Virus record (IMG/VR): IMGVR_UViG_2850808358_000001
Length of the DNA stretch: 19,777 bases
Source of the DNA: a virus
Lineage: Duplodnaviria; Heunggongvirae; Uroviricota; Caudoviricetes
Direction: 5' to 3' (one strand)
Position 1 is the stretch's first letter; every line of letters begins with the position of its first letter. The translations under genes were made by a program, and so were the position numbers. Positions 304-19,608 of this stretch are shown in pieces. The notes under the pieces are model-generated. The model searched no databases and had not been told where the DNA came from. It saw only the letters and a list, made by a program, of their open reading frames with translations.

Positions 304-338
304 TCGAACAATGGCGACAACAATTTCCCATTGAAGCG

Positions 339-1157
339 ATGTGTCAGGTATTTGGTGTATCCAGGAGCGGTTATTACAACCGGGTACAGCATGAACCCTC
401 AGACAGAAAACAAAGTGATGAGCGGCTAAAACTGGAGATTAAGGTGGCACATATCCGCACTCGCGAAACATATGGAACCCGGCGGCTCCAGACGGAGCTG
501 GCAGAGAATGGCATCATCGTTGGTCGTGACCGACTGGCACGTCTTCGTAAGGAGCTAAGGCTACGCTGTAAGCAGAAACGCAAGTTCAGAGCGACTACGA
601 ACCCGAACCACAATCTGCCAGTTGCGCCAAATCTGCTGAACCAGACGTTCGCTCCTACAGCACCAAATCAGGTCTGGGTGGCGGACCTGACGTATGTTGC
701 CACACAGGAGGGATGGTTGTACCTCGCTGGCATCAAAGATGTTTATACGTGCGAAATTGTCGGCTACGCCATGGGAGAGCGCATGACAAAAGAGCTGACA
801 GGTAAAGCCCTGTTTATGGCGCTCAGGAGCCAGCGCCCACCTGCCGGGCTAATCCACCACTCTGATCGAGGTTCACAGTACTGCGCATACGATTACCGGG
901 TCATACAGGAGCAGTTTGGTCTGAAAACATCAATGTCGCGTAAAGGTAACTGTTACGACAACGCTCCGATGGAAAGCTTCTGGGGAACGCTGAAAAATGA
1001 GAGCCTGAGCCACTATCGTTTTAATAACCGGGATGAAGCCATCTCAGTAATACGGGAATACATTGAGATTTTCTACAATCGTCAGCGTCGTCACTCTCGT
1101 CTGGGGAATATCTCCCCGGCAGCCTTCAGGGAAAAATATCATCAGATGGCTGCTTAA
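339..1157 (+). CDS. IS3-family transposase OrfB (DDE catalytic domain), probably made as an OrfAB fusion by -1 frameshift
   Basis: 272-aa ORF; the -1 frame is open from the A7G motif (252..259) into this ORF; the ...HHSDRGSQY...YDNAPMESFWGTLK... region fits a DDE integrase-type core. Confidence 0.9.
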   Translation: MCQVFGVSRSGYYNRVQHEPSDRKQSDERLKLEIKVAHIRTRETYGTRRLQTELAENGIIVGRDRLARLRKELRLRCKQKRKFRATTNPNHNLPVAPNLLNQTFAPTAPNQVWVADLTYVATQEGWLYLAGIKDVYTCEIVGYAMGERMTKELTGKALFMALRSQRPPAGLIHHSDRGSQYCAYDYRVIQEQFGLKTSMSRKGNCYDNAPMESFWGTLKNESLSHYRFNNRDEAISVIREYIEIFYNRQRRHSRLGNISPAAFREKYHQMAA

Positions 1158-1200
1158 AAAAAGAACAAATGGTAGTGTCCGCTATTGCCAGTACACCTCA

Positions 1201-2553: not shown

Positions 2554-2640
2554 ATAACCTAGGTTATAGCGGCGGTCAATAACTTAATTTATGGATTCTG
2601 ATAAATAAGTTATAAGTGATGGATAATAAAGGTATTTTAT
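2554..2640. promoter_or_regulatory. OL operator cluster / pL promoter region
   Basis: Palindrome ATAACCTAGGTTAT (2554..2567) plus related ATAA-rich repeats; same ATAAC-N4-GTTAT architecture as the OR sites at 4929..4991. Confidence 0.5.
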
Positions 2641-4208: not shown

Positions 4209-4916
4209 TTACCAGCTATGCGATGACCAGAATACTCTGCCAATAATCCTTACGGTTTTATGAAATTCATCTCTATCCATTACTTCATCCGGGTACTCTT
4301 CGCGATTTATTGATCTGATTATCACCGATGTAGGAGTGGCGATTAATGTTTTTACTCGCAACAAATCAGACTGGCAAATAGCGTAGGTTTTACCATCTCT
4401 GATGGTGGTATCTTGTGTGTTAACACCAACAACATCGCCATCGTGAAGAGTTGGTTCCATGCTTTGACCTGTTACCCTTACCAGCTTGGCAGAACTTTCA
4501 GTTACCCCCATCTTTTTCAGATAGTACTTTCTGAAAACCAAAGAGAACTCTGATGATTCTTCTATCTCGCAGCTACCGCTTCCAGCCGAAAGCGAAACGT
4601 TAAGAAGAGGCAATGCGACAAACTCGTCATCGTTTTTTTTAATGTCTTCCCATACCACAGCTTTTAAAGATGACTCACGGATATTGGATGGTTCTTCATG
4701 TGTACCATCCCTCATTTCACCAATACCAGAACTAAGCCATTCAGGGCGTACTTTTAAAGCATTAGCTAACTCAACCATCTTGCGAGATCCGTTTGTTTTA
4801 CCGGATGACATCTTCTGTATGGCTGGCTGAGATATTCCAACCATGTCCGCAAGCTGTGATTGCGACACCCCTGCCGATCTCATGGCTGCATTTAGTCTTT
4901 CTGCGAATGTTTTCAT
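4209..4916 (-). CDS. cI: CI-like prophage repressor (HTH plus S24 LexA-like autopeptidase domain)
   Basis: HTH (QSQLADMVGISQPAIQKM), Ala-Gly cleavage site (LSAGSG), Ser nucleophile motif GQSMEPT and downstream Lys; ATG at 4916 with no SD (leaderless-type start); the ORF track begins earlier at a TTG inside the operator. Confidence 0.85.
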   Translation of the reverse strand: MKTFAERLNAAMRSAGVSQSQLADMVGISQPAIQKMSSGKTNGSRKMVELANALKVRPEWLSSGIGEMRDGTHEEPSNIRESSLKAVVWEDIKKNDDEFVALPLLNVSLSAGSGSCEIEESSEFSLVFRKYYLKKMGVTESSAKLVRVTGQSMEPTLHDGDVVGVNTQDTTIRDGKTYAICQSDLLRVKTLIATPTSVIIRSINREEYPDEVMDRDEFHKTVRIIGRVFWSSHSW

Positions 4917-4927
4917 ATCCACAAATC

Positions 4928-5004
4928 TATAACTACGGTTATCCAAAGTAAAATAATAAAGGTTATTGCTATCTTTTATAACTTGGGTTATCCTTGGTTA
5001 TAAG
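4928..5004. promoter_or_regulatory. OR operator cluster with divergent pRM/pR promoters
   Basis: Palindromes ATAACTACGGTTAT (4929..4942) and ATAACTTGGGTTAT (4979..4991) plus related half-sites between divergent cI and cro. Confidence 0.6.
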
Positions 5005-5027
5005 TAATGGCTGAAAGAGGTATGCTC

Positions 5028-5252
5028 ATGAATTTAGTAATTCAACGAGCCTTGAAGATTGTCGGTAGTCAAAAGCGGCTTGCCGACAAGTGTGGTGTAA
5101 CGCAGCCAGCAGTACACAAATGGCTGAAAGGCGGGCAGGTTTCTCCAGAGAAAGTTACCGCCATCGTTAACGCCACTGGAGGGCAGATCAAGGCTTACGA
5201 AATTCGCCCAGATTTACCACACCTGTTTCCAAAACCGAATCAGGCAGCATAA
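5028..5252 (+). CDS. cro: Cro-like repressor (HTH)
   Basis: 75-aa ORF MNLVIQRALKIVGSQKRLADKCGVTQPAVHKWLKGG...; AGAGG SD 7 nt upstream of ATG 5028; divergent from cI across the operators. The ORF track starts at 5007, but that ATG lacks an SD. Confidence 0.65.
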   Translation: MNLVIQRALKIVGSQKRLADKCGVTQPAVHKWLKGGQVSPEKVTAIVNATGGQIKAYEIRPDLPHLFPKPNQAA

Positions 5253-6872: not shown

Positions 6873-8298
6873 TTTTTATGCGCCGCCCCATAGCATCGAG
6901 GCAGAGCAGGCGGTGATTGGTGGATTGCTTCTGGATGATGACAGCAGTGAGCGCGTCCAGAAGGTTCTTGCGATGCTGAAGCCTGACTCATTTTACAGCC
7001 GGCCACACAAAATCCTTTTCGAAGAAATAACCAGAATGCACCGGGAGCAAAAGCCAGTAGATGGCCTGACGCTTTTCGATGAACTGGAGCGTAAATCGTT
7101 AACGGCGTCTGTTGGCGGTTTTGCTTATATCGCTGAGATCGCAAAGAACACGCCAAGCGCCGCAAACATCGTTGCCTATGCAATGCAGGTTCGCGAAACC
7201 GCAATGGAACGCTACGCCATCAACCGCATGACTGAAGCGACGGAATTGCTCTATTCCCGCAACGGAATGACTGCAACGCAGAAGTACGAAGCTATTCAGG
7301 CGATTTTCACGCAACTGACAGACCATGCAAAAACCGGATCACGTCGCGGCCTTCGCTCATTTGGTGAGGTCATGGAAGACTGGGTTAGCGACCTTGAGAA
7401 GCGTTTTGACCCGTCAGGCGAACAACGAGGAATGAGCACAGGGATCCCATCGCTGGACAGGATGCTGTCACCGAAAGGTCTGGTGAAAGGCTCTCTGTTT
7501 GTCATTGGCGCTCGCCCTAAGATGGGGAAAACGACGCTATACAGCCAGATGGCAATCAACTGCGCAGTGCATGAGAAAAAGCCCGCTCTGATGTTCAGCC
7601 TTGAAATGCCAGGTGATCAGATACTGGAAAAACTGGTAGGGCAGAAGTCTGGTGTTAACCCGAATATTTTTTACCTTCCGGCGACAAATGACGCCGATGA
7701 CGGCTATCAGGGTGATTACGATGGTGACTTCAACAGGGCGATCGAAACAGCCAATCGCTTGAGTGAAATCGACCTGCTTTACATCGACGACACGCCGGGA
7801 TTATCTCTGGCTCAAATCGTCAGCGAAAGCCGTCGAATCAAGCGAGAAAAAGGATGTGTTGGCATGATTCTGGTCGATTACCTGACACTAATGACCGCTG
7901 AAAAGGCCGATCGCAACGACCTTGCCTACGGCATGATCACCAAAGGACTGAAGAACCTTGCCAAAGAGCTTGATTGCGTTGTTGTGCTTCTGACGCAGCT
8001 TAACCGCGCACTGGAAAGCCGAACCAATAAACGCCCATTACCAAGTGACTCACGAGATACAGGGCAGATTGAACAGGATTGCGATTATTGGGTGGGGATC
8101 CATCGTGAAGGTGCTTTTGATGACAGTGTTCCACCTGGTGAAACCGAACTAATCCTTCGTCTCAATCGTCATGGCAATACCGGCACGGTGTATTGCATTC
8201 AGGCAAATGGAGCTATTTATGACACAGACCAACAGTCTGCTGAAATGCGCCGCCGTGAACGCGAGGAACCGCAGTCCAAGAAGAAAGGAGGATTCTGA
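6862..8298 (+). CDS. replicative DNA helicase (DnaB-like, P22 gene 12 type)
   Basis: N-terminal DnaB-like domain (PHSIEAEQAVIGGLLLD), Walker A-like GARPKMGKT, Walker B-like ILVDYL; ATG 6862 with GAGGG SD. Confidence 0.85.
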   Translation: MTDNFYAPPHSIEAEQAVIGGLLLDDDSSERVQKVLAMLKPDSFYSRPHKILFEEITRMHREQKPVDGLTLFDELERKSLTASVGGFAYIAEIAKNTPSAANIVAYAMQVRETAMERYAINRMTEATELLYSRNGMTATQKYEAIQAIFTQLTDHAKTGSRRGLRSFGEVMEDWVSDLEKRFDPSGEQRGMSTGIPSLDRMLSPKGLVKGSLFVIGARPKMGKTTLYSQMAINCAVHEKKPALMFSLEMPGDQILEKLVGQKSGVNPNIFYLPATNDADDGYQGDYDGDFNRAIETANRLSEIDLLYIDDTPGLSLAQIVSESRRIKREKGCVGMILVDYLTLMTAEKADRNDLAYGMITKGLKNLAKELDCVVVLLTQLNRALESRTNKRPLPSDSRDTGQIEQDCDYWVGIHREGAFDDSVPPGETELILRLNRHGNTGTVYCIQANGAIYDTDQQSAEMRRREREEPQSKKKGGF

Positions 8299-8378: not shown

Positions 8379-8815
8379 AAAAACTAACCTTTGAAATTCG
8401 ATCTCCAGCACATCAGCAAAACGCTATTCACGCGGTACAGCAAATTCTTCCAGACCCAACCAAACCAATCGTAGTAACCATTCAGGAACGCAACCGCAGC
8501 TTAGACCAGAATCGAAAGCTTTGGGCTTGCCTTGGTGACGTCTCTCGTCAGGTTGAATGGCATGGTCGCTGGCTGGATGCAGAAAGCTGGAAGTGTGTGT
8601 TTACCGCGGCATTAAAGCAGCAGGACGTTGTTCCTAACCTTGCCGGGAATGGCTTTGTGGTAATAGGCCAGTCAACCAGCAGGATGCGTGTAAGCGAATT
8701 TGCGGAGTTATTAGAGCTTATACAGGCATTCGGTACAGAGCGTGGCGTTAAGTGGTCAGACGAAGCGCGACTGGCTCTGGAGTGGAAAGCGCGATGGGGA
8801 GATCGGGCTGCATGA
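8375..8815 (+). CDS. ninB: NinB-like recombination protein
   Basis: [24 protein letters not shown]...; position after the replication genes matches lambdoid ninB; assignment from memory. Confidence 0.8.
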
Positions 8816-9501
8816 CTATCAAATCAAATACGCCAGCACACGACAAGGACTGCTGGCAAACGCCACTTTGGCTTTTTGATGCGCTGGATATTGAGTTTGG
8901 ATTCTGGCTGGATTCGGCAGCGAGCGACAAAAATGCTCTGTGCGCTCACTGGCTAACTGAGGCCGACGACGCGCTCAATTCTGAGTGGGTAAGCCACGGT
9001 GCAATCTGGAATAACCCACCGTACAGCAATATCAGGCCGTGGGTGGAAAAAGCCGCTGAGCAGTGTATACAACAGCGACAGACGGTAGTTATGCTTGTGC
9101 CAGAGGATATGTCAGTCGGATGGTTCAGCAAGGCTCTGGAGAGTGTTGACGAAGTTCGCATCATCACTGATGGACGGATTAATTTTATCGAACCATCGAC
9201 AGGGCTGGAGAAAAAGGGAAACAGTAAAGGCTCAATGCTGCTGATTTGGCGACCGTTCATCAGTCCCCGGCGAATGTTTACTACCGTATCCAAAGCGGCA
9301 TTGATGGCGATCGGGCAGGGCGGCATGAGGCGACAGCGACGAAGTATTACCGACATAATCTGTGAAAACTGCAAATACCTTCCAACGAAACGCTCCAGAA
9401 ATAAACGCAAGCCAATCCCAAAAGAATCTGACGTAAAAACCTTCAACTACACGGCTCACCTGTGGGATATCCGGTGGCTAAGACATCGTGCGAGGAAATG
9501 A
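8812..9501 (+). CDS. phage DNA N6-adenine methyltransferase (Dam-like) with an unusual basic C-terminal extension
   Basis: NPPYS motif (DPPY-type motif IV) and CWQTP...F.LD.AA pattern of phage Dam family; ATG 8812 overlaps the ninB stop; last ~55 aa are Lys/Arg-rich and atypical. Confidence 0.75.
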
Positions 9502-9542: not shown

Positions 9543-9851
9543 TTAAACGAAGCGGATCTGGAGTTTTTTTCCAGTAGCGCGGGCGAATTTTTTTAGTGTG
9601 GCAAATGATGGGCCGCTGATACCTGATGCGAGATTACTTTCCATTCTGGTGATCGCGGTCGCTTTTGTTCCCATTCGCTCGGCAACTTCAGCCTGAGTTA
9701 AGCCAGCTTCTTTGCGTGCTGCCAGCATTTCATCAAGCAGTGCGAATTCGTCAGCGATAGCGTCGTATTCTGCTTTAAAAGCCGGGTCTTCCATCCATTT
9801 GGCTGCCATTTCGTCGTGTGTCATGGTGGGGAGAGTGCGTTTACCAGTCAT
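9543..9851 (-). CDS. HTH (XRE-family) antitoxin, HigA-like
   Basis: 102-aa ORF with HTH (GLTQAEVAERMGTKATAITRME); its ATG overlaps the toxin stop by 11 nt (ATGACTGGTAA); toxin-first gene order is typical of HigBA-type modules. Confidence 0.75.
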   Translation of the reverse strand: MTGKRTLPTMTHDEMAAKWMEDPAFKAEYDAIADEFALLDEMLAARKEAGLTQAEVAERMGTKATAITRMESNLASGISGPSFATLKKFARATGKKLQIRFV

Positions 9852-10170
9852 GCTTAACCTCCTTCATTCTGGTTTCAGCTTTCTTGCGTTCGGCTGGCGG
9901 TGTTTTCTGCGTTTTCTTTACAAAACTATGCAGCATGATGATGCGTTTCCCTGTCAGAGTGCAGTAAAAAACACGCGCGATCCCATCGTTGCCTTTAATT
10001 CTGAGTTCGAAAAGTCCGTCACCAAAGGCGCTGGTGTGAGGTTCTCCGAGATTGCTGCCATATATCTTCATACGTTCAACGAGATGTTGGTATCGGGCAC
10101 GCATACTCAATGGAAGCCGATCGACTTCCAGCCTTACATCTTCACTGTAGTATTCGATAGTGTAGTTCAT
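9841..10170 (-). CDS. RelE/HigB-superfamily toxin (Gp49-like)
   Basis: 109-aa ORF from MNYTIEYYSEDVRLEVDRLP...; size, toxin-first order and overlap with an HTH partner fit a type II toxin. The ORF track extends it to 10251 via an upstream start that I reject. Confidence 0.75.
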   Translation of the reverse strand: MNYTIEYYSEDVRLEVDRLPLSMRARYQHLVERMKIYGSNLGEPHTSAFGDGLFELRIKGNDGIARVFYCTLTGKRIIMLHSFVKKTQKTPPAERKKAETRMKEVKHDW

Positions 10171-10180
10171 AGGTATCAAC

Positions 10181-10196
10181 ATAACAAAATCGTTAT
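10181..10196. promoter_or_regulatory. palindromic putative operator upstream of the toxin gene
   Basis: ATAAC-AAAATC-GTTAT perfect inverted repeat 11..26 bp upstream of the toxin ATG, overlapping a candidate -10 region on the - strand. Confidence 0.4.
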
Positions 10197-10292
10197 ATGC
10201 ATTCAAGGCCTGTAGTTGACGACAACACATATCCGGGGCTATATTCCTCATACGCCAGCAAAATCTGGCGTCGGGATTGAGACCCCGGATGT

Positions 10293-10749
10293 TTACGGAG
10301 CGATATGAGACGCGCCCGCGTCTTTTTTCATATCGTTTGCACAGTCACATTCGCGATTTATGGTGGGCTGTGTGGGGGAGCCGAAACCGATAACCATTTC
10401 TTTGTTGAAGAGACAAAGCGAGCAGGCCAGTCCGATCGCGGTCCAACTGAGCCCCATTTCACGGGATTTTTCGGTAATACCATTCTCCCGATTGCTCCAG
10501 CGTTCCATAATCCAGTGGATCCACTCCTCCTGCTTAGGGAAGAGTAAAAACGGAATGGTCACCGGCAGGCCATAATCAATATTACGCGGGTCCGTTGTCA
10601 TGCCCCAGCCGATAATGAACTGAGCCGGGTTGGTACGGTAAAACTGTTTTAGTGCAGGCAATATTTCAGGATTCTGGCGAATGCGCTGTAGGCGTTCCAT
10701 CCGCCATTCAAAAACCATCTGGTAATCAGGATGTTTAAAATCGAAGGGT
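10293..10749 (-). pseudogene. large terminase subunit, N-terminal ATPase portion only; split by IS600 and 3'-truncated
   Basis: Frame ...[15 protein letters not shown]...[20 protein letters not shown]... resembles the N-terminal ATPase region of P22-like TerL; continuous in frame with the 6 codons at 12014..12030 across IS600 copy 2; stops after ~150 aa where a full TerL would be ~450-500 aa. Confidence 0.65.
10308..10328 (+). terminator. intrinsic terminator-like hairpin with T5 tract on the + strand
   Basis: AGACGCG..CGCGTCT stem followed by TTTTT; lies inside the 3' end of the truncated terL reading frame, suggesting foreign junction sequence. Confidence 0.45.
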
Positions 10750-10813
10750 TGAGGTAGCCTGAGTTTAACGGACACTCCTTCCTGAAATAGAATGGCATCA
10801 GAAGGAGCTAATA

Positions 10814-11116
10814 ATGAGCAGAAAAACCCAACGTTACTCTAAAGAGTTCAAAGCCGAAGCTGTCAGAACGGTTCTTGAAAATCAACTTTCGATCAGTGAA
10901 GGCGCTTCCCGATTATCCCTTCCTGAAGGCACTTTAGGACAATGGGTTACCGCCGCCAGAAAAGGGCTCGGTACTCCTGGTTCCCGCACGGTGGCTGAAC
11001 TGGAATCTGAAATTCTGCAACTGCGTAAGGCGTTAAATGAAGCTCGCCTTGAGCGAGATATATTAAAAAAAGCAACAGCGTATTTTGCACAGGAGTCGCT
11101 GAAAAATACGCGTTAA
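10814..11116 (+). CDS. IS3-family transposase OrfA
   Basis: Identical protein to copy 1 OrfA. Confidence 0.9.
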
Positions 11117-11151
11117 TCGAACAATGGCGACAACAATTTCCCATTGAAGCG

Positions 11152-11970
11152 ATGTGTCAGGTATTTGGTGTATCCAGGAGCGGTTATTACAACTGGGTAC
11201 AGCATGAACCCTCAGACAGAAAACAAAGTGATGAGCGGCTAAAACTGGAGATTAAGGTGGCACATATCCGCACTCGCGAAACATATGGAACCCGGCGGCT
11301 CCAGACGGAGCTGGCAGAGAATGGCATCATCGTTGGTCGTGACCGACTGGCACGTCTTCGTAAGGAGCTAAGGCTACGCTGTAAGCAGAAACGCAAGTTC
11401 AGAGCGACTACGAACCCGAACCACAATCTGCCAGTTGCGCCAAATCTGCTGAACCAGACGTTCGCTCCTACAGCACCAAATCAGGTCTGGGTGGCGGACC
11501 TGACGTATGTTGCCACACAGGAGGGATGGTTGTACCTCGCTGGCATCAAAGATGTTTATACGTGCGAAATTGTCGGCTACGCCATGGGAGAGCGCATGAC
11601 AAAAGAGCTGACAGGTAAAGCCCTGTTTATGGCGCTCAGGAGCCAGCGCCCACCTGCCGGGCTAATCCACCACTCTGATCGAGGTTCACAGTACTGCGCA
11701 TACGATTACCGGGTCATACAGGAGCAGTTTGGTCTGAAAACATCAATGTCGCGTAAAGGTAACTGTTACGACAACGCTCCGATGGAAAGCTTCTGGGGAA
11801 CGCTGAAAAATGAGAGCCTGAGCCACTATCGTTTTAATAACCGGGATGAAGCCATCTCAGTAATACGGGAATACATTGAGATTTTCTACAATCGTCAGCG
11901 TCGTCACTCTCGTCTGGGGAATATCTCCCCGGCAGCCTTCAGGGAAAAATATCATCAGATGGCTGCTTAA
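11152..11970 (+). CDS. IS3-family transposase OrfB (DDE domain)
   Basis: Identical to copy 1 OrfB except R14W (c to t at 11194). Confidence 0.9.
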   Translation: MCQVFGVSRSGYYNWVQHEPSDRKQSDERLKLEIKVAHIRTRETYGTRRLQTELAENGIIVGRDRLARLRKELRLRCKQKRKFRATTNPNHNLPVAPNLLNQTFAPTAPNQVWVADLTYVATQEGWLYLAGIKDVYTCEIVGYAMGERMTKELTGKALFMALRSQRPPAGLIHHSDRGSQYCAYDYRVIQEQFGLKTSMSRKGNCYDNAPMESFWGTLKNESLSHYRFNNRDEAISVIREYIEIFYNRQRRHSRLGNISPAAFREKYHQMAA

Positions 11971-12013
11971 AAAAAGAACAAATGGTAGTGTCCGCTATTG
12001 CCAGTACACCTCA

Positions 12014-12030
12014 GGGAATGGTAACGGCAT
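12014..12030 (-). pseudogene. first 6 codons of terL (MPLPFP), separated from the rest by IS600 copy 2
   Basis: ATG at 12030..12028 overlapping the terS stop region; joins in frame to 10749 when the IS is removed. Confidence 0.5.
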
Positions 12031-12032
12031 AC

Positions 12033-12587
12033 TTAGCCCATCATTTTTCTATACACCTCTGCGGCCTGCTCAGGCGTTAATTTGGTAATTTCTGTTCTGA
12101 CTGGTCCTCCGTCAGCGCCAGTCACTTCATTTTTGACGTTGTCTTTAAACGCCTGAACAGAAACATGACGCCCAAGCAACTCAAGGTTTTTAACCTTATC
12201 AGGCCATTTGATTTTCTTCAGAAGTGCGGTGCTATCTGCGGATACCATCTCCACGACATCCATTCCTGATAGCGTTGTGCGCCATACCTTAGGCCAGTCT
12301 TTAATGGGCTTTAGCTCACCGTTTTGCAGGAGAATGTCGAGCACATCCATCTGGTCGATTTCAACCAATCTACGAAGAACATAGGCGGCATCTATACCCG
12401 TCTGCTCAACGCGGGCGGATTTAAGTTCAGCAACGAATTTTTGAACATTAACATTTGCTAATAATCGAGATGCCTGCTCATTGGCGGTCTTCTCGCTGTA
12501 GCCCGCCCTGATAGCTGCCTGTGTGCCGTTCAGATCTTTCAGGTACTCACGGGCAAACAGCTCTTGTTTGTCGGTGAGCTTTGCCAT
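12033..12587 (-). CDS. terminase small subunit
   Basis: 184-aa ORF MAKLTDKQELFAREYLKDLNGTQAAIRAGYSEKTA...; HTH-like N-terminus typical of small terminase subunits; immediately upstream of terL. Confidence 0.75.
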   Translation of the reverse strand: MAKLTDKQELFAREYLKDLNGTQAAIRAGYSEKTANEQASRLLANVNVQKFVAELKSARVEQTGIDAAYVLRRLVEIDQMDVLDILLQNGELKPIKDWPKVWRTTLSGMDVVEMVSADSTALLKKIKWPDKVKNLELLGRHVSVQAFKDNVKNEVTGADGGPVRTEITKLTPEQAAEVYRKMMG

Positions 12588-12688
12588 TATTTGTGCTCCG
12601 TTTATCCGTTAAAAGGGATATCAGTTAAGTTATCCCGTGTAGGGTATAAGCCATTATCAAGCCCACCAGTAGATGGGCTTTGTAATGG

Positions 12689-12946
12689 CTACTTCGCTTT
12701 TGCTTCCGCTCGCTTACGCCGGCGCTCTTCTTTCCTCTCGGCTTTTGCCATGTCCATGAATGTCTGCATGATCGAGTTCCGCATCATGTAGCTAACAAAG
12801 TGATGATTGACACAGCCGTTGAGGCGCAGCTGCTCGCCAAACTCATCCACCGAGGCCAATGCTTCCATCATGCCCTTCTCGCCTTTCATGAACTCTGAGA
12901 AGTCGCGCCCCGCTCTGGAGGCGCATTCAATGACACGATCACTCAT
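12689..12946 (-). CDS. hypothetical protein (85 aa) with basic C-terminus
   Basis: ATG overlaps the stop of the KilA-N gene (ATGA coupling); C-terminal ERKEERRRKRAEAKAK; no family recognised. Confidence 0.5.
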   Translation of the reverse strand: MSDRVIECASRAGRDFSEFMKGEKGMMEALASVDEFGEQLRLNGCVNHHFVSYMMRNSIMQTFMDMAKAERKEERRRKRAEAKAK

Positions 12947-13440
12947 CCCGGAAGCCCGGGGATCGTTATCTGCAGCTGGTTAGCCAGGGAGTTAATCTCA
13001 GCGACCAACACTGGCTTCGTATAGCGCCATGCCGCCAGCCCTTGTCCACAGAAGCTCGCCATATCTTTTTTCTGATCAAACTCATGACACTTCATATTGA
13101 GCTGCGCACTTAAGCTGTTGCGATGCTGAAGTTCTCCGGTGAAGTAGTCATCCAGGACTTTATAGGCTGCATATTTAAATCCGGGGTTTAGCCATGCTGC
13201 ATAATCATAAGCAACAAACTTCCCGCCATATGTTCCACCGTGTACACCGCGCTCAGTAAAAACCACAGATTCGTGGTTTTTCTCCAGCTCGGCTAAGAAC
13301 TCTTTGGTCTGCTTGTTTCGCAGGTAGTGGTACGGAGATTCAGATTCACTTTTACCACTGGCTTTCCACATATCAGTGAGGCAGATCATTCCTGATTCAT
13401 CAACACGGATCGGTGTATTAAAAAGCGTGATTGCTTTCAT
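12943..13440 (-). CDS. KilA-N domain protein
   Basis: Pattern ...KQTKEFLAELEK...TERGVHGGTYGGKFVAYDYAAWLNPGF... fits the KilA-N DNA-binding domain signature as I recall it. Confidence 0.7.
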   Translation of the reverse strand: MKAITLFNTPIRVDESGMICLTDMWKASGKSESESPYHYLRNKQTKEFLAELEKNHESVVFTERGVHGGTYGGKFVAYDYAAWLNPGFKYAAYKVLDDYFTGELQHRNSLSAQLNMKCHEFDQKKDMASFCGQGLAAWRYTKPVLVAEINSLANQLQITIPGLPG

Positions 13441-13588
13441 GGCGTCTTTACCTTTTAGAAAGATGAGCCTGTTCGCACAGAAAAGCCGTCCCCGAGATGG
13501 TCGCCACCATATACGGCAATTCTCAGGCTCAGCTTTCTGAAAGACTCGGGGTTTATATGCGCTGCGATGCGCGGTTTACTGCGGACAT

Positions 13589-13612
13589 ATAAAAGCCCCG
13601 CAAGTGCGAGGC
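13589..13612 (-). terminator. terminator-like hairpin downstream of Rz/Rz1
   Basis: Minus strand GCCTCGCA-CT-TGCGGGGC (one mismatch) followed by TTTTAT. Confidence 0.45.
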
Positions 13613-13645
13613 TCATTAAATGGACTTTGTGATTTGCAAAAAAAT

Positions 13646-14113
13646 TTATTTCAGGCACTGAGTCCTGATGTACTCCTGAAGCATTCTCAATGCTGTCTGG
13701 TCGCTGATGATTCCGTCCCGGATACCGAGAACGTTTCGTCCAGCAACTGGAGAGAGTTCGACGGTGGCATCATTGCCCATGCCGGAGGCGCTGGAGGTTT
13801 CGGCTGAGGATGGCACAGGGCATTTTCCTTTGACGAGCACCCGACCACCATTATCAAGCTTGCGCCGAAGAGCATCATTTTCAGCTTTCGCATTGGCTAA
13901 CTCCTTCGTGTATTTAGCATCGAGTGCATCAGCAGCACGCTGGCGCTGCTGCATGTCAGTAATGGTTGCGTTCGCCAGCTTCAGTTCTCTTGCGTTTTTG
14001 TCGCGCTGCTCTTTGTAGGTAATGGCGTTATCACGGTAATGATTAACAGCCCATGACAGGCGGACGATGATGCAGATAACCAGAGCGGAGATAATCGCGG
14101 TGACTCTGCTCAT
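13646..14113 (-). CDS. Rz: Rz i-spanin
   Basis: [17 protein letters not shown]...[11 protein letters not shown]...[18 protein letters not shown] closely resembles lambda Rz; ATG overlaps the R stop (ATGA). The ORF track starts 4 codons earlier at 14125. Confidence 0.85.
13687..13893 (-). CDS. Rz1: Rz1 o-spanin (lipoprotein) embedded in the +1 frame of Rz
   Basis: [21 protein letters not shown]... with lipobox-like VVGC and Pro-rich PKPPAPPAW, like lambda Rz1; fully inside Rz in another frame. Confidence 0.6.
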
Positions 14114-14607
14114 TGCTGCCCCCACAAACAGACTTCACGCTCAATCTCACGACGGGTCATCAGCCCTTTCCATTGCTTACCGCCAGCATATGTCCAGCGA
14201 CGTAGCTGGTCACATGCGCCTTTGATATCGCCCTGGTTTATTTTGCGAAGAAGCGTCGATGTTCTGAAATTGCCAGCGCCCACGTTGTAAACGAACGAGT
14301 AAAGAGCGCCGCGCGTTGTTTCCGGTATATCGACTTTGATGTACGGGTTAATTTGTCTGGCGACAGTGGCAAGGTCTTTATTCAGGAGAGCTTTGCATTC
14401 TGCTTCGGTATACGTTTTACCAGGCATGATGTCTTTTCCGGTGTGTCCGTGACATACAGTCCATACACCAATGATATCTTTGTATGGTATGTAGCTGACA
14501 CCTTCCAGACCATCGTTACCACCTGGGCCAGTGATTAACACAGATGCTATAGCAACAGCCCCGCCACCAATAGCAACTGCAACAGCCTTGCGTAATGATG
14601 GCGACAT
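14110..14607 (-). CDS. R: SAR endolysin (phage-21 R type lysozyme)
   Basis: N-terminal Gly/Ala-rich signal-anchor-release segment ([18 protein letters not shown]) followed by a lysozyme domain; near-identical to phage 21 R as I recall it. Confidence 0.9.
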
Positions 14608-14822
14608 TATTCACCTCTCGCAGCCTTACGCTTGTCTTCTCTTAATTTGAAATACAGATTCGTCAGATAAGTCAGAAGCCCCAGAAGCAGACTTCCCAGC
14701 ACACCAATCGCAGCCCACTGTGATGGACTGACCTGATCCAACCACTGCAAAAACCAGTAGCCGGCACTGCCGGCGGAGGTGCCGTAGGCAATGCCCGTTG
14801 AAATTTTGTCCATGGATTTCAT
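14607..14822 (-). CDS. S: pinholin (phage-21 S type) with dual-start motif MKSM
   Basis: 71-aa [47 protein letters not shown]...; two TM segments; GGAGG SD upstream; start overlaps the R gene. Confidence 0.9.
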
Positions 14823-14937
14823 AGCCTCACCTCCGCAAATAACGGATGGCGTAGTTCTTATATTGGAAGGGAAAAAAAAGGCCGCAGCGTAACTGTCACT
14901 GATGAATTCAGGATAGCCAGTGGCTACGGCTCAGTTA

Positions 14938-15013
14938 TGGTGCTGGTTAACGGACTTGAACCGCTACCCATTCGCTTACAAGGCGACTGCTCTACCATTA
15001 GAGCTAAACCAGC
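14938..15013 (-). tRNA. phage-encoded tRNA, anticodon read as UGU (tRNA-Thr), CCA encoded
   Basis: Manual fold of the minus strand: acceptor GCUGGUU/AACCAGC, D-arm GCUC/GAGC with GG loop, anticodon loop CUUGUAA, T-arm with UUCAAGU loop, 3' ACCA; one non-WC pair at the top of the anticodon stem. Confidence 0.6.
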
Positions 15014-15018
15014 ATATT

Positions 15019-15093
15019 TGGCGGGACAGCGTGGACTCGAACCACGATAAGAAGGTTAACAGCCTTCCGTAATGACCTTTATACGACTGACCC
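15019..15093 (-). tRNA. phage-encoded tRNA, anticodon read as GUU (tRNA-Asn), CCA encoded; may be degenerate
   Basis: Manual fold: T-arm CGUGG-UUCGAGU-CCACG perfect, anticodon stem GAAGG/CCUUC perfect with loop CUGUUAA; acceptor and D stems each carry one mismatch. Confidence 0.5.
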
Positions 15094-15125
15094 AAATAAA
15101 AAATCCCGAAAGCAGGCTCTATTCC
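15094..15125 (-). terminator. putative tR'-like terminator region (U-tract) ending the short pR' transcript
   Basis: Minus strand ...AGAGCCTGCTTTCGGGATTTTTTATTT about 180 nt downstream of pR'; resembles the lambda tR' 3' end as I recall it, but I could not fold a clean stem. Confidence 0.35.
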
Positions 15126-15282
15126 TATGTGCTCTCGAGTTTATGATGCGCATGTCAGTGCGCTTAGCGAAAAACGCCGTAAACCCTCGCCCGACAGGGC
15201 GGGGAGCAGTCACAACTTAAAGATGAGGTGGGTAAAAAACCGAAAGAATGTGAACGGATATAAACCTGCCATTCTTGAGTCA

Positions 15283-15311
15283 AATTTACCCAACTTTATT
15301 CAAAAAGTCAA
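15283..15311 (-). promoter_or_regulatory. late promoter pR' with qut-like region
   Basis: Minus strand TTGACT-N17-TAAATT followed by TTGACTCAAGAATGG; closely resembles lambda pR'/qut as I recall it; located ~40 bp downstream of Q. Confidence 0.65.
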
Positions 15312-15353
15312 TATCATGCCGTTAAGATATTGCCATCCATGGCAATCATGCCG

Positions 15354-15977
15354 CTAACGTGTGACCGCATTCAAAATGTTGTCTGCGATTGACTCTTCTT
15401 TGTGGCATTGCACCACCAGAGCGTCATACAGCGGCTTAACAGTGCGTGACCATGTGGGTTGGGTGAGGTTTGGGATTAGCATCGTTACAGCGCGATATGC
15501 TGCACTTGCTGGCATCCTTGAATAGCCGACACCTTTGCATCTTCCGCACTCTTTCTCGACAACTCTCCCCCACTGCTCTGTTTTGGCTATATCAACTGCC
15601 AGACCTGTTCCGTGGCAATCTCTGCATCTTGCGCCCGGCGTCGCGGCACTACGGCAATAATCCGCATAAGCGAATGTTGCGAGCACTTGCAGTACCTTTG
15701 CCTTAGTATTTCCTTCGAGCTTTGCCACACCACGGTATTTCCCCGATACCTTGTGTGCAAATTGCATCAGATAGTTGATAGCCTTTTGTTTGTCGTTCTG
15801 GCTGAGTTCATGCTTACCGCAAAATGCAGCCATTCCGAATCCGGCTTGTGATTGCGCCATCCCCATAGCAGCCATCACATCAGTACCGGAAAGAGAGTCA
15901 GAAGCCGTAGCCCGTGGTGAGTCGCTCATCATCGGGCTTTTTGGCGAATGAAATTTAGCTACGCTTTCGAGTCTCAT
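15354..15977 (-). CDS. Q: antitermination protein Q (Cys-rich type, as in phage 82/21-like Q)
   Basis: 207-aa ORF with CRDCHGTG...CGRCKGVGY zinc-binding-like motifs; directly upstream of pR'; ATG overlaps the upstream gene stop. Confidence 0.7.
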   Translation of the reverse strand: MRLESVAKFHSPKSPMMSDSPRATASDSLSGTDVMAAMGMAQSQAGFGMAAFCGKHELSQNDKQKAINYLMQFAHKVSGKYRGVAKLEGNTKAKVLQVLATFAYADYCRSAATPGARCRDCHGTGLAVDIAKTEQWGRVVEKECGRCKGVGYSRMPASAAYRAVTMLIPNLTQPTWSRTVKPLYDALVVQCHKEESIADNILNAVTR

Positions 15978-16162
15978 CGTCTTCCCCTCTTGCCCTGTTT
16001 GACCATCAGGACGCCGTTAACTATTACGTGACGCTCGCCTTTGCTGTCTCGGTTGTACTTGAGCACTGTTCCTCTTGCGCAGGAAAGCATCCTCGCCACT
16101 TCGGTCTGATTGCCTCGTGTCTGGATAAGAAGCTCTGGTATCGTTTGAATTGTGGCGTTCAT
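15974..16162 (-). CDS. small nin-region protein (62 aa), possibly DNA-binding
   Basis: ORF MNATIQTIPELLIQTRGNQTEVARMLSCARGTVLKY...; translationally coupled (ATGA overlaps) with rusA upstream and Q downstream. Confidence 0.5.
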   Translation of the reverse strand: MNATIQTIPELLIQTRGNQTEVARMLSCARGTVLKYNRDSKGERHVIVNGVLMVKQGKRGRR

Positions 16163-16521
16163 ACGTTCTCCAGTTCGGTGATTTTTATTCCAAGCCTTCC
16201 GCCTGGTACTTTCACACCACGAATTACGCGAATGTCATCGAATTGCTCGTCGTCTTCCGCAAATCCGGCGTGGATAAGAGAGTCGAGTAGCCCCTTCAGG
16301 ATGTTGTCGAGGTCGCGGCGGCGGGAGTCTGGAACGTCTGCGATGACTTTGATGCGGAGTCGTGCTTTGGTGAAAATATCTAACTTGAGTTGGCGGATGA
16401 TTTGCTGAACGTCTTTTCGGTATTTCTGGCCTTTATCGCTGATGTAGTATTGGCTTCCCCGTCTTCGCCAGTAGGTGTTCAGCGACGGTGGGTATGGAAG
16501 CACAAACTGATATTCGTTCAT
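16159..16521 (-). CDS. rusA: RusA Holliday-junction resolvase
   Basis: Motifs PPSLNTYW and DSRRRDLDNILKGLLDSL match the RusA family signature. Confidence 0.85.
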   Translation of the reverse strand: MNEYQFVLPYPPSLNTYWRRRGSQYYISDKGQKYRKDVQQIIRQLKLDIFTKARLRIKVIADVPDSRRRDLDNILKGLLDSLIHAGFAEDDEQFDDIRVIRGVKVPGGRLGIKITELENV

Positions 16522-16808
16522 GGCTTAATCTTCCCCTCCTTCAGCAGTATCGCCTGCGTCCTGATCACGCCTTCGAGGTGGTAAAGTCTGGCGTCTTTGT
16601 TGTCGAGGTTATGGGTGCGTCGGTCGATTTCATCGTGACACGCGCTACAAGCCCATGCGCCGATCAGGTCGTCAGGCTTCATTCCCGTTCCGCAAATTCC
16701 AGCCATCCGGTAATGTGCCAGAACTGTAGTTTCAGGATTGCCATTGCATACGCCGTAAATACGTACCTGGCATTCTCTGCCGCGCGCTTCTTTGCGTAAG
16801 TTAGCCAT
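16518..16808 (-). CDS. YbcO-like nin-region protein (DUF1364-type, Cys/His-rich putative nuclease)
   Basis: MANLRKEARGRECQVRIYGVCNGNPETTVLAH...CSACHDEIDRR resembles DLP12 YbcO as I recall it; GGAGG SD; upstream of rusA as in DLP12. Confidence 0.75.
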   Translation of the reverse strand: MANLRKEARGRECQVRIYGVCNGNPETTVLAHYRMAGICGTGMKPDDLIGAWACSACHDEIDRRTHNLDNKDARLYHLEGVIRTQAILLKEGKIKP

Positions 16809-17536
16809 TAAGCAGCCTCCCCTGTTACTTTCAGCATTCCGTTATAGAGCAGCTTTCTGGTCAGCCACTGTTGGCCACGCCCGGTGATTTTTGTGGTGAA
16901 CGATATCTGTATTCCGTGATTTGTGTTGACTGCTGTTTCTTTCACTGTGAAATAGCCGCGATCCATATATTCCTGCATTGGCACATTGCGCCGGGAACCT
17001 GAAGCAATAAGGATTTTGTGATCGCGCATCCACGCAAACAGTTTGTTTGGACCAATTCCAACAACCTTTGCAAAGTTTCCAATCAAAATTCCGCTGGCCT
17101 CGCTAACGCGATCGGCAAACTCAACTTTAGGTGCTGCGAGAGCAAGCTGTTTCTCCAGTTCAGCCTTCTGGTCTTCAAGGTCGGCCGCAAGGCGCAATGC
17201 CTCAGAAAAGGTTTGTGGGATTTTCGCGGTTGCCCCTTCAAGCTCTCGCCAACGGTCAACAAGACGAGCGGTGAATTCCGGCGACAACTGGGCAACGACA
17301 ATAATGCTGTCGCGCTTACCTTGTTCGCCTTCGAAGACGTAATGCTCGTACTGAACATTGAACCCTAAGTTATTGATTCTTTCGGAAACCTCAAATTGAG
17401 GATGCCGGATAACACCATTTTTAGCCAGCGTTTCGATGGTACGTTTCACATTGTCATGACGCTTACCCACCAACTCAGCGATTTCAATGCTGGTCATTTT
17501 GATGGCGTTGCTATTTATCAGCTCGTTCATTGTCAT
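16808..17536 (-). CDS. phage antirepressor (Rha-type N-terminal domain plus Ant-like C-terminal domain)
   Basis: N-terminus ...MTSIEIAELVGKRHDNVKRTIETL matches the Rha family signature; the likelier start is ATG 17530 (GAGG SD at 8 nt) rather than 17536. Confidence 0.75.
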   Translation of the reverse strand: MTMNELINSNAIKMTSIEIAELVGKRHDNVKRTIETLAKNGVIRHPQFEVSERINNLGFNVQYEHYVFEGEQGKRDSIIVVAQLSPEFTARLVDRWRELEGATAKIPQTFSEALRLAADLEDQKAELEKQLALAAPKVEFADRVSEASGILIGNFAKVVGIGPNKLFAWMRDHKILIASGSRRNVPMQEYMDRGYFTVKETAVNTNHGIQISFTTKITGRGQQWLTRKLLYNGMLKVTGEAA

Positions 17537-17553
17537 GTCCTCTCATATTGAAA

Positions 17554-17575
17554 ATTCAGCAATAAAAAACCCAGC
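17554..17575 (-). terminator. rho-independent terminator
   Basis: Minus strand CCCAGC-TTCG-GCTGGG hairpin followed by TTTTTT; downstream of the ORF ending at 17605. Confidence 0.6.
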
Positions 17576-17604
17576 CGAAGCTGGGTCGTTGCGTTGGCAA
17601 TCTG

Positions 17605-17976
17605 TCAGTAGTGATGTAGTGAAGGAGGTAATTCTTTGTTCTTAAGTCTTACCCATGCAGAAAGATTCGTTGGTCCGTCTGGCTCATTAATATCAACATC
17701 TCGTGTGTGATTGATTAAAACGTCTCTCGCCATTCCGATAACATACGAGAACTCATGACCGTAGTCGTGGCATCTGCCGGAATAGTTAGACTGAATTTGT
17801 CTTAGCGCCGGATACAGTTCGCGGAATAATGCCTGTGAGCGGTTGGCATAATCCCACAACCATACCAGACTGTTTGCATCTTTTGCAGAAAGCTCGCTGG
17901 TTTTCTTCTCGTGATGACCTGCGCTTTTCGAAGTCTGGCTGAAATAGCAGTCTTCCAGTTTTTCGAACACGTCCAT
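17605..17976 (-). CDS. hypothetical protein, or C-terminal part of a frameshifted ORF6N-domain gene
   Basis: 123-aa [17 protein letters not shown]... overlapping by ~175 nt the other open frame that continues from the ORF6N domain. Confidence 0.4.
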
Positions 17977-18281
17977 GCCTGATCGGTTTCGAGCATCTTC
18001 GCGTGACGGGCTGCGCCTCGTTCTGTCCAGAGGATGAGCGAGCGGGCATTTTTACCAACTAACCCGATTGTTTCGGGTCTGTTCTTAAACTCGCGTAATT
18101 CGTTTTTTTCAATTTTAAAGTAATGCTTTCCTACCACGAATCGCATCGTGTTGTTCAGAAAATTATCAGAAATGTTTTTGATTTTTGTTCCGTATAACTG
18201 CGCCAGAAGTTCAGTTGTAATAACGGGGATCTGGTTGTGGGTGATTGCAGGAAGAGTGTCGACAGAAATTTGAGTGAGCAT
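17802..18281 (-). CDS. ORF6N-domain (antirepressor-like) protein
   Basis: ...[15 protein letters not shown]...NISDNFLNN...[14 protein letters not shown]...[24 protein letters not shown] fits the ORF6N-type domain pattern; ATG 18281 with GGAG SD; the ORF track extends the frame into IS600 because the IS end is open in that frame. Confidence 0.55.
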
Positions 18282-18409
18282 AACGATAACTCCGTACATT
18301 TGGTCATTATCGCCACCTTCTGGTCTCAATAATCTGGTGGCGAGCTGAGGTAGCCTGAGTTTAACGGACACTCCTTCCTGAAATAGAATGGCATCAGAAG
18401 GAGCTAATA

Positions 18410-18712
18410 ATGAGCAGAAAAACCCAACGTTACTCTAAAGAGTTCAAAGCCGAAGCTGTCAGAACGGTTCTTGAAAATCAACTTTCGATCAGTGAAGGCG
18501 CTTCCCGATTATCCCTTCCTGAAGGCACTTTAGGACAATGGGTTACCGCCGCCAGAAAAGGGCTCGGTACTCCTGGTTCCCGCACGGTGGCTGAACTGGA
18601 ATCTGAAATTCTGCAACTGCGTAAGGCGTTAAATGAAGCTCGCCTTGAGCGAGATATATTAAAAAAAGCAACAGCGTATTTTGCACAGGAGTCGCTGAAA
18701 AATACGCGTTAA
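18410..18712 (+). CDS. IS3-family transposase OrfA
   Basis: Identical protein to copies 1 and 2. Confidence 0.9.
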   Translation: MSRKTQRYSKEFKAEAVRTVLENQLSISEGASRLSLPEGTLGQWVTAARKGLGTPGSRTVAELESEILQLRKALNEARLERDILKKATAYFAQESLKNTR

Positions 18713-18747
18713 TCGAACAATGGCGACAACAATTTCCCATTGAAGCG

Positions 18748-19564
18748 ATGTGTCAGGTATTTGGTGTATCCAGGAGCGGTTATTACAACCGGGTACAGCA
18801 TGAACCCTCAGACAGAAAACAAAGTGATGAGCGGCTAAAACTGGAGATTAAGGTGGCACATATCCGCACTCGCGAAACATATGGAACCCGGCGGCTCCAG
18901 ACGGAGCTGGCAGAGAATGGCATCATCGTTGGTCGTGACCGACTGGCACGTCTTCGTAAGGAGCTAAGGCTACGCTGTAAGCAGAAACGCAAGTTCAGAG
19001 CGACTACGAACCCGAACCACAATCTGCCAGTTGCGCCAAATCTGCTGAACCAGACGTTCGCTCCTACAGCACCAAATCAGGTCTGGGTGGCGGACCTGAC
19101 GTATGTTGCCACACAGGAGGGATGGTTGTACCTCGCTGGCATCAAAGATGTTTATACGTGCGAAATTGTCGGCTACGCCATGGGAGAGCGCATGACAAAA
19201 GAGCTGACAGGTAAAGCTCTGTTTATGGCGCTCAGGAGCCAGCGCCCACCTGCCGGGCTAATCCACCACTCTGATCGAGGTTCACAGTACTGCGCATACG
19301 ATTACCGGGTCATACAGGAGCAGTTTGGTCTGAAAACATCAATGTCGCGTAAAGGTAACTGTTACGACAACGCTCCGATGGAAAGCTTCTGGGAACGCTG
19401 AAAAATGAGAGCCTGAGCCACTATCGTTTTAATAACCGGGATGAAGCCATCTCAGTAATACGGGAATACATTGAGATTTTCTACAATCGTCAGCGTCGTC
19501 ACTCTCGTCTGGGGAATATCTCCCCGGCAGCCTTCAGGGAAAAATATCATCAGATGGCTGCTTA
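18748..19564 (+). pseudogene. IS3-family transposase OrfB inactivated by frameshift
   Basis: G-run is GGG at 19391..19393 where copies 1 and 2 have GGGG; the ORF stops prematurely at 19401 (217 aa instead of 272). Confidence 0.8.
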
Positions 19565-19608
19565 AAAAAAGAACAAATGGTAGTGTCCGCTATTGCCAGT
19601 ACACCTCA

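Follow-up and report, generated by a model that had tools for sequence, protein, structure and literature searches.

A probable toxin-first HigBA-type toxin-antitoxin operon, with a putative operator of its own, in a rearranged lambdoid prophage

Introduction

The HigBA toxin-antitoxin (TA) modules in which the toxin carries a Gp49 domain (PF05973) are placed in the HigB branch within the RelE/ParE superfamily, and in all studied cases the toxin gene comes first, ahead of the gene for its antitoxin (PMC5906591). Members include HigBA of Acinetobacter baumannii, Tad-Ata of Paracoccus pAMI2 and HigBA2/3 of Mycobacterium tuberculosis, all of which pair a PF05973 toxin, in this reverse gene order, with an Xre-type helix-turn-helix (HTH) antitoxin; in A. 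baumannii the antitoxin autorepresses and the toxin acts as co-repressor (PMC5906591). Here a gene pair of this type is described from a 19,777-nucleotide stretch of DNA of a Caudoviricetes virus (IMG/VR record IMGVR_UViG_2850808358_000001), the whole of which is referred to as the window. The pair is very probably a bicistronic, toxin-first type II TA operon of the Gp49-domain HigBA kind (the Tad-Ata, M. tuberculosis HigBA and Streptococcus pneumoniae HigBA group), carried as a moron of a lambdoid prophage and equipped with an operator of its own, whose likeness to the operators of the prophage repressor CI is coincidental.

Two further systems are central to the comparison. The HigBA complex of S. 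pneumoniae (PDB 6AF3/6AF4) binds palindromes in its own promoter, and the active site proposed for its toxin, SpHigB, consists of E66, R68, R73, F90 and K92, with R68, R73, F90 and K92 being backed by mutagenesis (PMC7984235). HigB1 of the M. tuberculosis toxin-antitoxin-chaperone (TAC) system (PDB 7NBU, 7AWK) is a ribosome-bound mRNase (PMC9098466), and related HigB-type toxins of TAC systems are reported to mediate antiphage defence (bioRxiv 10.1101/2024.02.24.581848).

One of the questions concerning toxin-first operons relates to stoichiometry: how is the antitoxin kept in excess when its gene comes second? In Escherichia coli hicAB the transcript from the autoregulated promoter begins close to the toxin start and lacks the hicA ribosome-binding site, which puts translation of the toxin at a disadvantage to that of the antitoxin (PMC7167474). 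The module in the window is of an already known kind, and annotation pipelines already label its relatives as TA systems: close relatives appear in RefSeq as "type II toxin-antitoxin system RelE/ParE family toxin" and "helix-turn-helix domain-containing protein", and those in phage PhiR5_2 are annotated as HigB and HigA. It also matters little for the core biology of the phage. What is added here, and is of modest interest, is an operator found family-wide, a probable leaderless start of the toxin gene and a conserved pairing with the IsrK/C4 antirepressor operon. The survey of relatives defines that operator precisely (ATAAC, an AT-rich N6 spacer, GTTAT), together with a promoter geometry, likewise conserved, from which leaderless translation of the toxin is predicted and which so offers a testable answer to the question of antitoxin excess.

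The toxin-antitoxin gene pair

The two genes (Table 1) lie on the strand opposite to the replication and nin genes, and their open reading frames (ORFs) have 11 nt (ATGACTGGTAA) in common, an overlap that is kept in all close relatives; the antitoxin gene is directly downstream of the toxin gene in every relative examined. An original prediction, made from the sequence alone, had recognised a Gp49/RelE toxin and an XRE-HTH antitoxin at these coordinates and with this overlap, running against the adjacent replication operon, and had classed them as HigBA-like from their toxin-first order. The coordinates and the orientation hold, and the classification is borne out by the profile, structure and fold searches described below. 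Both genes are under purifying selection, with ratios of non-synonymous to synonymous substitution (dN/dS), for those comparisons that could be computed, of 0.01-0.15 for the toxin gene and 0.002-0.11 for the antitoxin gene.

The toxin start is placed at 10170. A longer ORF of 136 aa, from an ATG at 10251, was rejected because the extension is not conserved and the relatives are 109-111 aa long; the extension would also overlap the isrK promoter. In Shigella phage POCJ13 the toxin is annotated at 87 aa although the full 109-aa ORF is intact. A further side observation concerns L042-type loci (handles with L denote loci of the comparison sets described below) and the E. coli matches H72-H77, in which the antitoxin and the C-terminal third of the toxin are ~87-91% identical to the window, with the N-terminal two-thirds of the toxin far more diverged and the toxin at 73% amino acid identity overall; this difference in identity between the two parts of the gene suggests that recombination may have taken place within it.

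With regard to the toxin itself, its sole Pfam match is Gp49 (E 7e-26, 90.5 bits, against a cut-off of 23.9), and its best match in the PDB is SpHigB (6af3_A), with E-values of 1.5e-5 for the single sequence and 8.5e-9 for a profile made from relatives, a profile that also matches M. tuberculosis HigB1 (E 2e-3). An AlphaFold (AF2) model with a mean predicted local distance difference test score (pLDDT) of 89.6 has the order beta-alpha-alpha-beta4 followed by a C-terminal helix. A Foldseek search with this model places SpHigB at the top (template-modelling (TM) score 0.75-0.79) and HigB1 second (TM 0.68-0.76), with YafQ, RelE, HigB2, YoeB and ParE2 in the lower ranks. Five residues that are invariant in an alignment of 31 sequences, E55, R57, R66, F83 and K85, align with E66, R68, R73, F90 and K92 of SpHigB. 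In the model the toxin adopts the RelE/HigB fold, the catalytic residues of HigB are intact, and ribonuclease activity is predicted; the proposed action on mRNA is supported by the ribosome-bound mRNase activity of the related HigB1.

Not every protein named HigB is close to this toxin. Gp49 toxins have little similarity to the HigB proteins of Rts1, E. coli K-12 and V. cholerae (PMC5906591). The window toxin does not fall into the HigB families of Rts1, E. coli K-12 or V. cholerae HigB2, as Pfam gives Gp49 alone, and V. cholerae HigB2 is a weaker structural match to the model (TM ~0.55).

The antitoxin matches HTH_3 in Pfam over residues 44-98 (E 3e-11, 43.5 bits, cut-off 23). Its best PDB match is the antitoxin chain of the same complex, S. 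pneumoniae HigA (6af3_B; 1e-3 for the single sequence, 3.3e-11 for the profile), and the profile also matches M. tuberculosis HigA2 and HigA3 and HipB. The N-terminal ~40 aa are presumed to form the toxin-binding segment ahead of the C-terminal XRE HTH, directly after which the protein ends (...QIRFV).

The S. pneumoniae system is thus the best match of both proteins in sequence and in structure. The two share the toxin-first order, a RelE-like beta-sheet core with an unusual C-terminal helix, the conserved E/R/R/F/K set and an antitoxin in which a toxin-binding segment (presumed here) precedes the XRE HTH. They differ in that identity is only ~20% over the fold alignment, and in that one is a Gram-positive chromosomal system whereas the other is prophage-borne. 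With M. tuberculosis HigB1 the likeness lies in the fold and sequence of the toxin; unlike the TAC system, the window has no SecB-like chaperone gene and its antitoxin has no chaperone-addiction (ChAD) extension. A TAC system was ruled out because the module has no third gene, the antitoxin stops right after its HTH and the gene that follows, a dam-ninE fusion, is convergent. Finally, the window module resembles A. baumannii HigBA, Tad-Ata and M. tuberculosis HigBA2/3 in its PF05973 toxin, reverse order and HTH-Xre antitoxin, but represents a different, prophage-borne subfamily in comparison with those plasmid and chromosomal modules.

A family-wide operator

The original prediction had drawn attention to a perfect palindrome, ATAAC-N6-GTTAT, upstream of the toxin ATG, which is indeed exact, with 10 nt between the two. 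Taken alone, the number of such palindromes within the window is weak evidence for an operator: there is one exact copy, and allowing up to one mismatch gives 2 sites where 0.41 are expected, the second of which (12618..12633) was treated as chance. The palindrome is held to be a real operator because its position and its sequence are conserved across relatives.

Three sets of relatives were compared. The phage set comprises 56 phage and prophage loci, made up of 4 annotated loci and of IMG/VR loci with 53-100% toxin identity, which between them give 17 distinct upstream 63-mers. The exact palindrome is found at -26..-11 in 16 of these 17 sequences, and TAAC-N6-GTTA in all 17; beyond the palindrome, conservation is confined to a TTG placed 4-5 nt upstream of it and to the bases directly 3' of it, with the stretch between palindrome and ATG being freely variable. 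The motif is also found in four distant chromosomal members of the family, in Methylospira, Glaciimonas, Arsenophonus and Castellaniella. A scan of species-representative genomes found relatives encoded in at least 578 genomes, and upstream regions were analysed in the best 80, which belong to Gammaproteobacteria, Betaproteobacteria, Nitrospirae and one metagenome-assembled genome of Desulfovibrionaceae. Within these best 80 the motif is present with up to one mismatch in 55 and with up to two in 70, and in 50 of the former 55 it ends 9-10 nt before the start codon. The N6 spacer is always AT-rich, with a consensus of ATATTT or AATTTT.

We therefore read the palindrome, whose binding by the antitoxin is predicted from this conservation, as a family-specific operator of the TA module itself. 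The recognition helix of the antitoxin is well conserved among relatives, and operator and helix have presumably co-evolved. The presumed counterpart in S. pneumoniae differs, in that the promoter there has four longer palindromes of a different sequence.

Promoter geometry and the start of the toxin gene

The spacer of a putative sigma-70 promoter is filled by the palindrome, the right arm of which also forms bases 1-3 of the -10 element (Table 1). In all three sets the TTG of the -35 and the TAT..T of the -10 are kept at fixed spacing whilst the flanks diverge. Some relatives have stronger hexamers in the same geometry, for instance TTGCAT-17-TATTAT in L056, TATAAT in Glaciimonas and TTGTCT-18-TATTAT in Castellaniella. 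Only 7 nt (GATACCT) separate the -10 from the toxin ATG in the window, and 5-7 nt do so across the family; the base 5' of the A of the toxin start is usually a pyrimidine in the phage-locus upstream sequences. In 79 of the best 80 genomes the toxin start has no Shine-Dalgarno (SD)-like core. On account of the -10 lying 7 nt from the ATG and of the missing SD, a leaderless toxin mRNA is probable. The antitoxin, in contrast to this SD-less start, is preceded in relatives by a sequence that is always AAGGAGG or AAAGAGG, 5-6 nt ahead of its ATG and inside the 3' end of the toxin gene.

Table 1. Features of the window discussed in the text (positions in the 19,777-nucleotide stretch).
Feature	Position	Strand	Basis and remarks
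Toxin gene, 109 aa, Gp49-domain HigB-like (RelE/ParE superfamily), predicted mRNA interferase	9841..10170	-	Pfam, PDB, fold, dN/dS
Antitoxin gene, 102 aa, HigA-like, XRE helix-turn-helix	9543..9851	-	Pfam, PDB, synteny
Antitoxin Shine-Dalgarno AAGGAGG	9858..9864	-	Within 3' end of toxin gene, 6 nt before antitoxin ATG; read from sequence
Operator palindrome ATAAC-AAAATC-GTTAT (N6)	10181..10196	.	Exact; presumed site of antitoxin dimer or TA complex
TA promoter, inferred sigma-70: -35 TTGAAT (10206..10201), 17-nt spacer, -10 TATGTT (10183..10178)	10178..10206	-	Comparative conservation
isrK promoter-like site: TTGACG (10216-21), 18 nt, TATATT (10240-45)	10216..10245	+	Consensus scan, 10/12 positions; belongs to the neighbour, not to the TA module
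IsrK-type small RNA (sRNA) or leader with a1-b1 targets of C4-type antisense RNA	10252..10328	+	Rfam RF01394, 70.6 bits (gathering threshold (GA) 50), full length
C4 antisense RNA gene, 5' 31 nt	10356..10386	+	Cut at breakpoint 10386/10387; mapped from L003
terL fragment, 363 bp	10387..10749	-	Between breakpoint and IS copy
IS600-like (IS3-family) insertion sequence (IS) copies	1..1200; 10750..12013; 18346..19608		Nearly identical, direct orientation
cI	4209..4946	-
cro	5007..5252	+

Taken together, these features fit the following scheme. An antitoxin dimer, or the TA complex, would bind the palindrome, and as this occupies the interval from the -35 to the -10 and extends into the latter, binding would occlude RNA polymerase and repress the operon. 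When the operon is transcribed, the transcript would start at or next to the toxin AUG, so that the toxin would be poorly translated from a leaderless mRNA; the strong internal SD, on the other hand, would allow for efficient translation of the antitoxin, giving an excess of antitoxin despite the reverse order of the genes. Were the antitoxin to be depleted, free toxin would cleave mRNA on the ribosome and bring about growth arrest, and the biological role may be stabilisation of the prophage, abortive defence against other phages, or both.

A leaderless start would, if true, solve the stoichiometry problem of toxin-first operons. The closest parallel is hicAB, in which toxin translation is disfavoured in the same way by the nearness of the promoter, unlike which the present arrangement is deduced from conserved geometry, involves unrelated proteins and has a 5'-terminal AUG that could permit some translation of the toxin. 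For S. pneumoniae HigBA a leaderless arrangement is unreported, and in comparison with the Gp49 HigBA and Tad-Ata modules both the ATAAC-N6-GTTAT operator and the SD-less start are described only for the subfamily of the window. No direct description was found in the literature of a leaderless higB, of a TA module linked to C4/IsrK or of this TA subfamily in lambdoid or Stx phages. A family-wide leaderless start may be a general and so far undescribed way of holding toxin below antitoxin in reverse-order TA operons, and we regard this as more likely than a functional cassette of the TA module with the antirepressor operon, which is considered below.

Several observations weigh against this account of the operon. 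None of the NCBIfam TA models reaches its cut-off, the score being 21 bits for TIGR02683, which requires 62.9, with RstR and HipB likewise below, and PADLOC gives no full-length match to a defence protein, residues 49-99 of the toxin aligning with the last 50 positions of NsnC (E 8e-10). With sub-threshold scores in the one and a partial match in the other, the module is taken to be a subfamily without a curated equivalog, and no paper was found that characterises exactly this TA subfamily. The TA promoter of the window matches the consensus at 8 of 12 positions and was missed by the consensus scan; it rests on comparative conservation because the scan called only the divergent isrK promoter. 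Many distant relatives start the toxin with GTG, a poor leaderless start codon in E. coli, and with GTG starts so common the leaderless reading may fail for some members, or a short leader may exist. Apart from these points, ATA replaces the toxin ATG in PhiR5_2, L051 and L052, which otherwise retain an intact toxin ORF, operator and antitoxin. The loss of a toxin start codon is the usual route of decay for such modules, and in these three loci it probably silences the toxin. In GenBank a shorter 'HigB' is annotated in PhiR5_2.

NsnC is itself a candidate defence-system protein in PADLOC; its C-terminal 50 positions match the C-terminal half of the toxin, which suggests that NsnC may carry a Gp49/RelE-like domain. 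The antitoxin has only generic HTH matches in PADLOC.

Genomic context and integrity of the module

The closest relatives of the prophage are found in E. coli VL40 and RMDEC465 and among Shigella phages, which, taken with the three IS600-like copies, may point to a genome of Shigella or EIEC-like type. In intact relatives the O/P-type replication genes are followed by ninB, dam (or another gene) and ninE, then by the antitoxin and toxin genes on the opposite strand, after which come isrK, C4 and an antirepressor gene, and then rusA, Q and the lysis genes. The module is hence an antisense-oriented moron in the nin region of a lambdoid prophage, situated between ninE and the IsrK/C4 antirepressor operon. 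Of 5426 complete E. coli genomes 31 carry it, in every case on the chromosome, and megablast gives no plasmid match in PLSDB; the suggestion in the original prediction that it is accessory rather than core phage content agrees with this distribution.

The same prediction had placed the module at a rearrangement junction, and comparison of the flank with that of the RMDEC465 prophage locates the junction. Colinearity is lost after 10386, a point 31 nt into C4 and 216 bp from the toxin ATG on its upstream side. Species-representative genomes contain no exact match to the 10386/10387 junction. Beyond this point the late region is inverted with respect to intact relatives (10387..18347, with the terS-side, lysis genes, tRNA-Thr/Asn, Q, rusA and antirepressors), the inverted antirepressor-to-terminase segment lying at 12388..18347. 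The junction spares the whole TA unit together with its promoter.

On the other side of the module, an 11-bp deletion (GTCAGGAGGGC) near 9318, relative to the RMDEC465 prophage, removes the stop codon of dam and the SD of ninE. The result is one dam-ninE ORF of 249 aa (8752..9501, +), and Pfam finds Dam and NinE in the same protein.

Could the module, then, have ceased to function and be decaying along with a dead prophage, its toxin inactive or its operon silent? The heavy rearrangement of the prophage, with its three IS600-like copies, inverted late region and truncated C4, could be read in this way, as could the relatives that have lost the toxin start codon. The module itself gives a different picture, in that the toxin is full length and 100% identical to the copies in 11 other viral contigs, all of the invariant residues of the family are present, the 11-nt overlap is kept along with an intact promoter, operator and SD, and dN/dS is far below 1 for both genes, so that decay is an improbable explanation. 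A functional TA operon remains the preferred reading, and its intactness within an otherwise decayed prophage is consistent with addiction or with selection for a benefit to the host, although the three relatives that have lost the toxin ATG speak against this. As to role, the sequence is compatible with prophage retention through addiction, with abortive defence and with neither of these.

The neighbouring IsrK/C4 antirepressor operon

The original prediction had missed an RNA element that is arranged back-to-back with the TA promoter. In Gifsy-1 and in P1, IsrK and C4 control antirepressor translation (PMC4825925), and the neighbour of the TA module resembles the IsrK-orf45-AnrP module of the former and the C4-icd-ant module of the latter (PMC4825925; RF01394, RF01695, RF03163) in having a full-length isrK complete with promoter and terminator (10216..10328). 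The promoter is the only one called by the scan, and its predicted start at ~10252 coincides with the 5' end of isrK, which is closed by a terminator-like hairpin at 10307..10324. A second Rfam model, RF03163 (c4-a1b1), scores 45.3 bits over 10239..10291, just under its GA of 46.7. An antirepressor (immI-like) operon begins with isrK. Unlike in Gifsy-1 and P1, C4 is cut here after 31 nt, and the antirepressor gene is now inverted near 18281, ~8 kb away. A remnant of the 3' end of C4 lies near 18333..18347 (-), adjoining an IS600-like copy; in L003, where C4 is at 7049..7133, homology to the window ends at 7079 and resumes, inverted, at 7119.

The -35 elements of the two divergent promoters are 9 bp apart in the window and ~5-9 bp apart in phage loci. 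Every close enterobacterial phage locus tested has the TA module next to isrK/C4 or to sRNA-Xcc1, and in enterobacterial phage loci at large this divergent arrangement is nearly always seen. The RNA occurs in several sequence variants: isrK and C4 in L002, L003, L004, L005, L010, L016, L017, L022, L023, L026, L030, L031, L040, L042, L045, L047, L053 and L055, and sRNA-Xcc1 in L036, L037 and L056. At the four distant chromosomal members tested (L086-L089) the isrK/C4 module is absent. The pairing may reflect a functional link or an insertion hot spot.

Two proposals would make the link functional. In the first, the TA module of enterobacterial lambdoid phages is one half of a conserved cassette with the IsrK/C4 antirepressor operon and gates antirepressor expression, and so prophage induction or anti-immunity; this could come about through DNA binding by HigA or through mRNase action of HigB on the isrK-C4-ant transcript, which is highly structured. 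We consider this unlikely. The second proposal assigns the pair functionally to the antirepressor (immI-like) module in place of an autonomous TA, the HTH protein acting, like Mnt of P22, on the divergent isrK/ant promoter and the Gp49 protein being a modulator. The back-to-back promoters at every close enterobacterial phage locus tested are what such an arrangement would lead one to expect. However, many chromosomal loci have the same TA module and operator but neither isrK nor C4. The palindrome overlaps the -10 of the TA promoter and lies ~56-71 bp upstream of the isrK start, outside the isrK promoter, at which there are no further ATAAC/GTTAT sites, and the toxin retains a full RNase active site. 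Little probability is thus left to a role as part of the antirepressor module, and the pair is better regarded as an autonomous TA operon with a conserved neighbour.

The CI operators and the shared half-site

The original prediction had also observed that the CI operators of the prophage use the same half-sites with an N4 spacer, and had proposed that the TA operator reuses them. The observation is correct. ATAAC-N4-GTTAT is exact at 4929 and 4978 in the right operator (OR), with further sites at 4953 (1 mismatch) and 4988 (2 mismatches), and exact at 2554 in the left operator (OL), with a further site at 2579 (1 mismatch); across the window, matches with up to two mismatches number 14, against 6.7 expected. 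Functional reuse is not supported. The RMDEC465 prophage has a TA module that is 99% identical, with the same palindrome, next to a cI-cro region without homology to that of the window and an OR made up of GTAC-type repeats with no ATAAC/GTTAT; POCJ13 has a TA module that is 92% identical and operators of the TTAAC type. Conversely, Stx1 phage LC727904 shares the immunity region of the window at 93% identity but has no TA module. The CI operators share an inner G before GTTAT that the TA site does not have, and BLASTP finds no meaningful similarity between the antitoxin and CI beyond that of generic HTH proteins.

With its N6 spacer, and unchanged as it is in phages of other immunity types and in non-phage chromosomes, the TA site does not belong to the CI regulon of the prophage. 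The likeness of the two is read as a coincidence because the palindrome is conserved family-wide, including in phages with unrelated immunity regions. A change of 2 bp in spacing normally abolishes the cooperative binding of HTH dimers. That CI nonetheless co-regulates the TA promoter and wires the module into the lysis-lysogeny switch is highly improbable, for although the half-site identity is real, the palindrome is a trait of the family, shared by chromosomes from many genera and by phages whose immunity regions are unrelated, immunity type and TA module assort independently, the spacing differs by 2 bp, the inner G is missing and CI and the antitoxin are not specifically similar. A 5-bp half-site shared with a phage repressor can thus be pure coincidence, and hypotheses of cross-talk need to be tested against relatives.

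The immunity region itself (2554..2592 and 4929..5001) has 14-bp operators, of which OR has at least 4 and OL at least 2, and is of a type common to a few Stx1a phages (SH2026Stx1, Stx1a_10051) at 93-95% identity.

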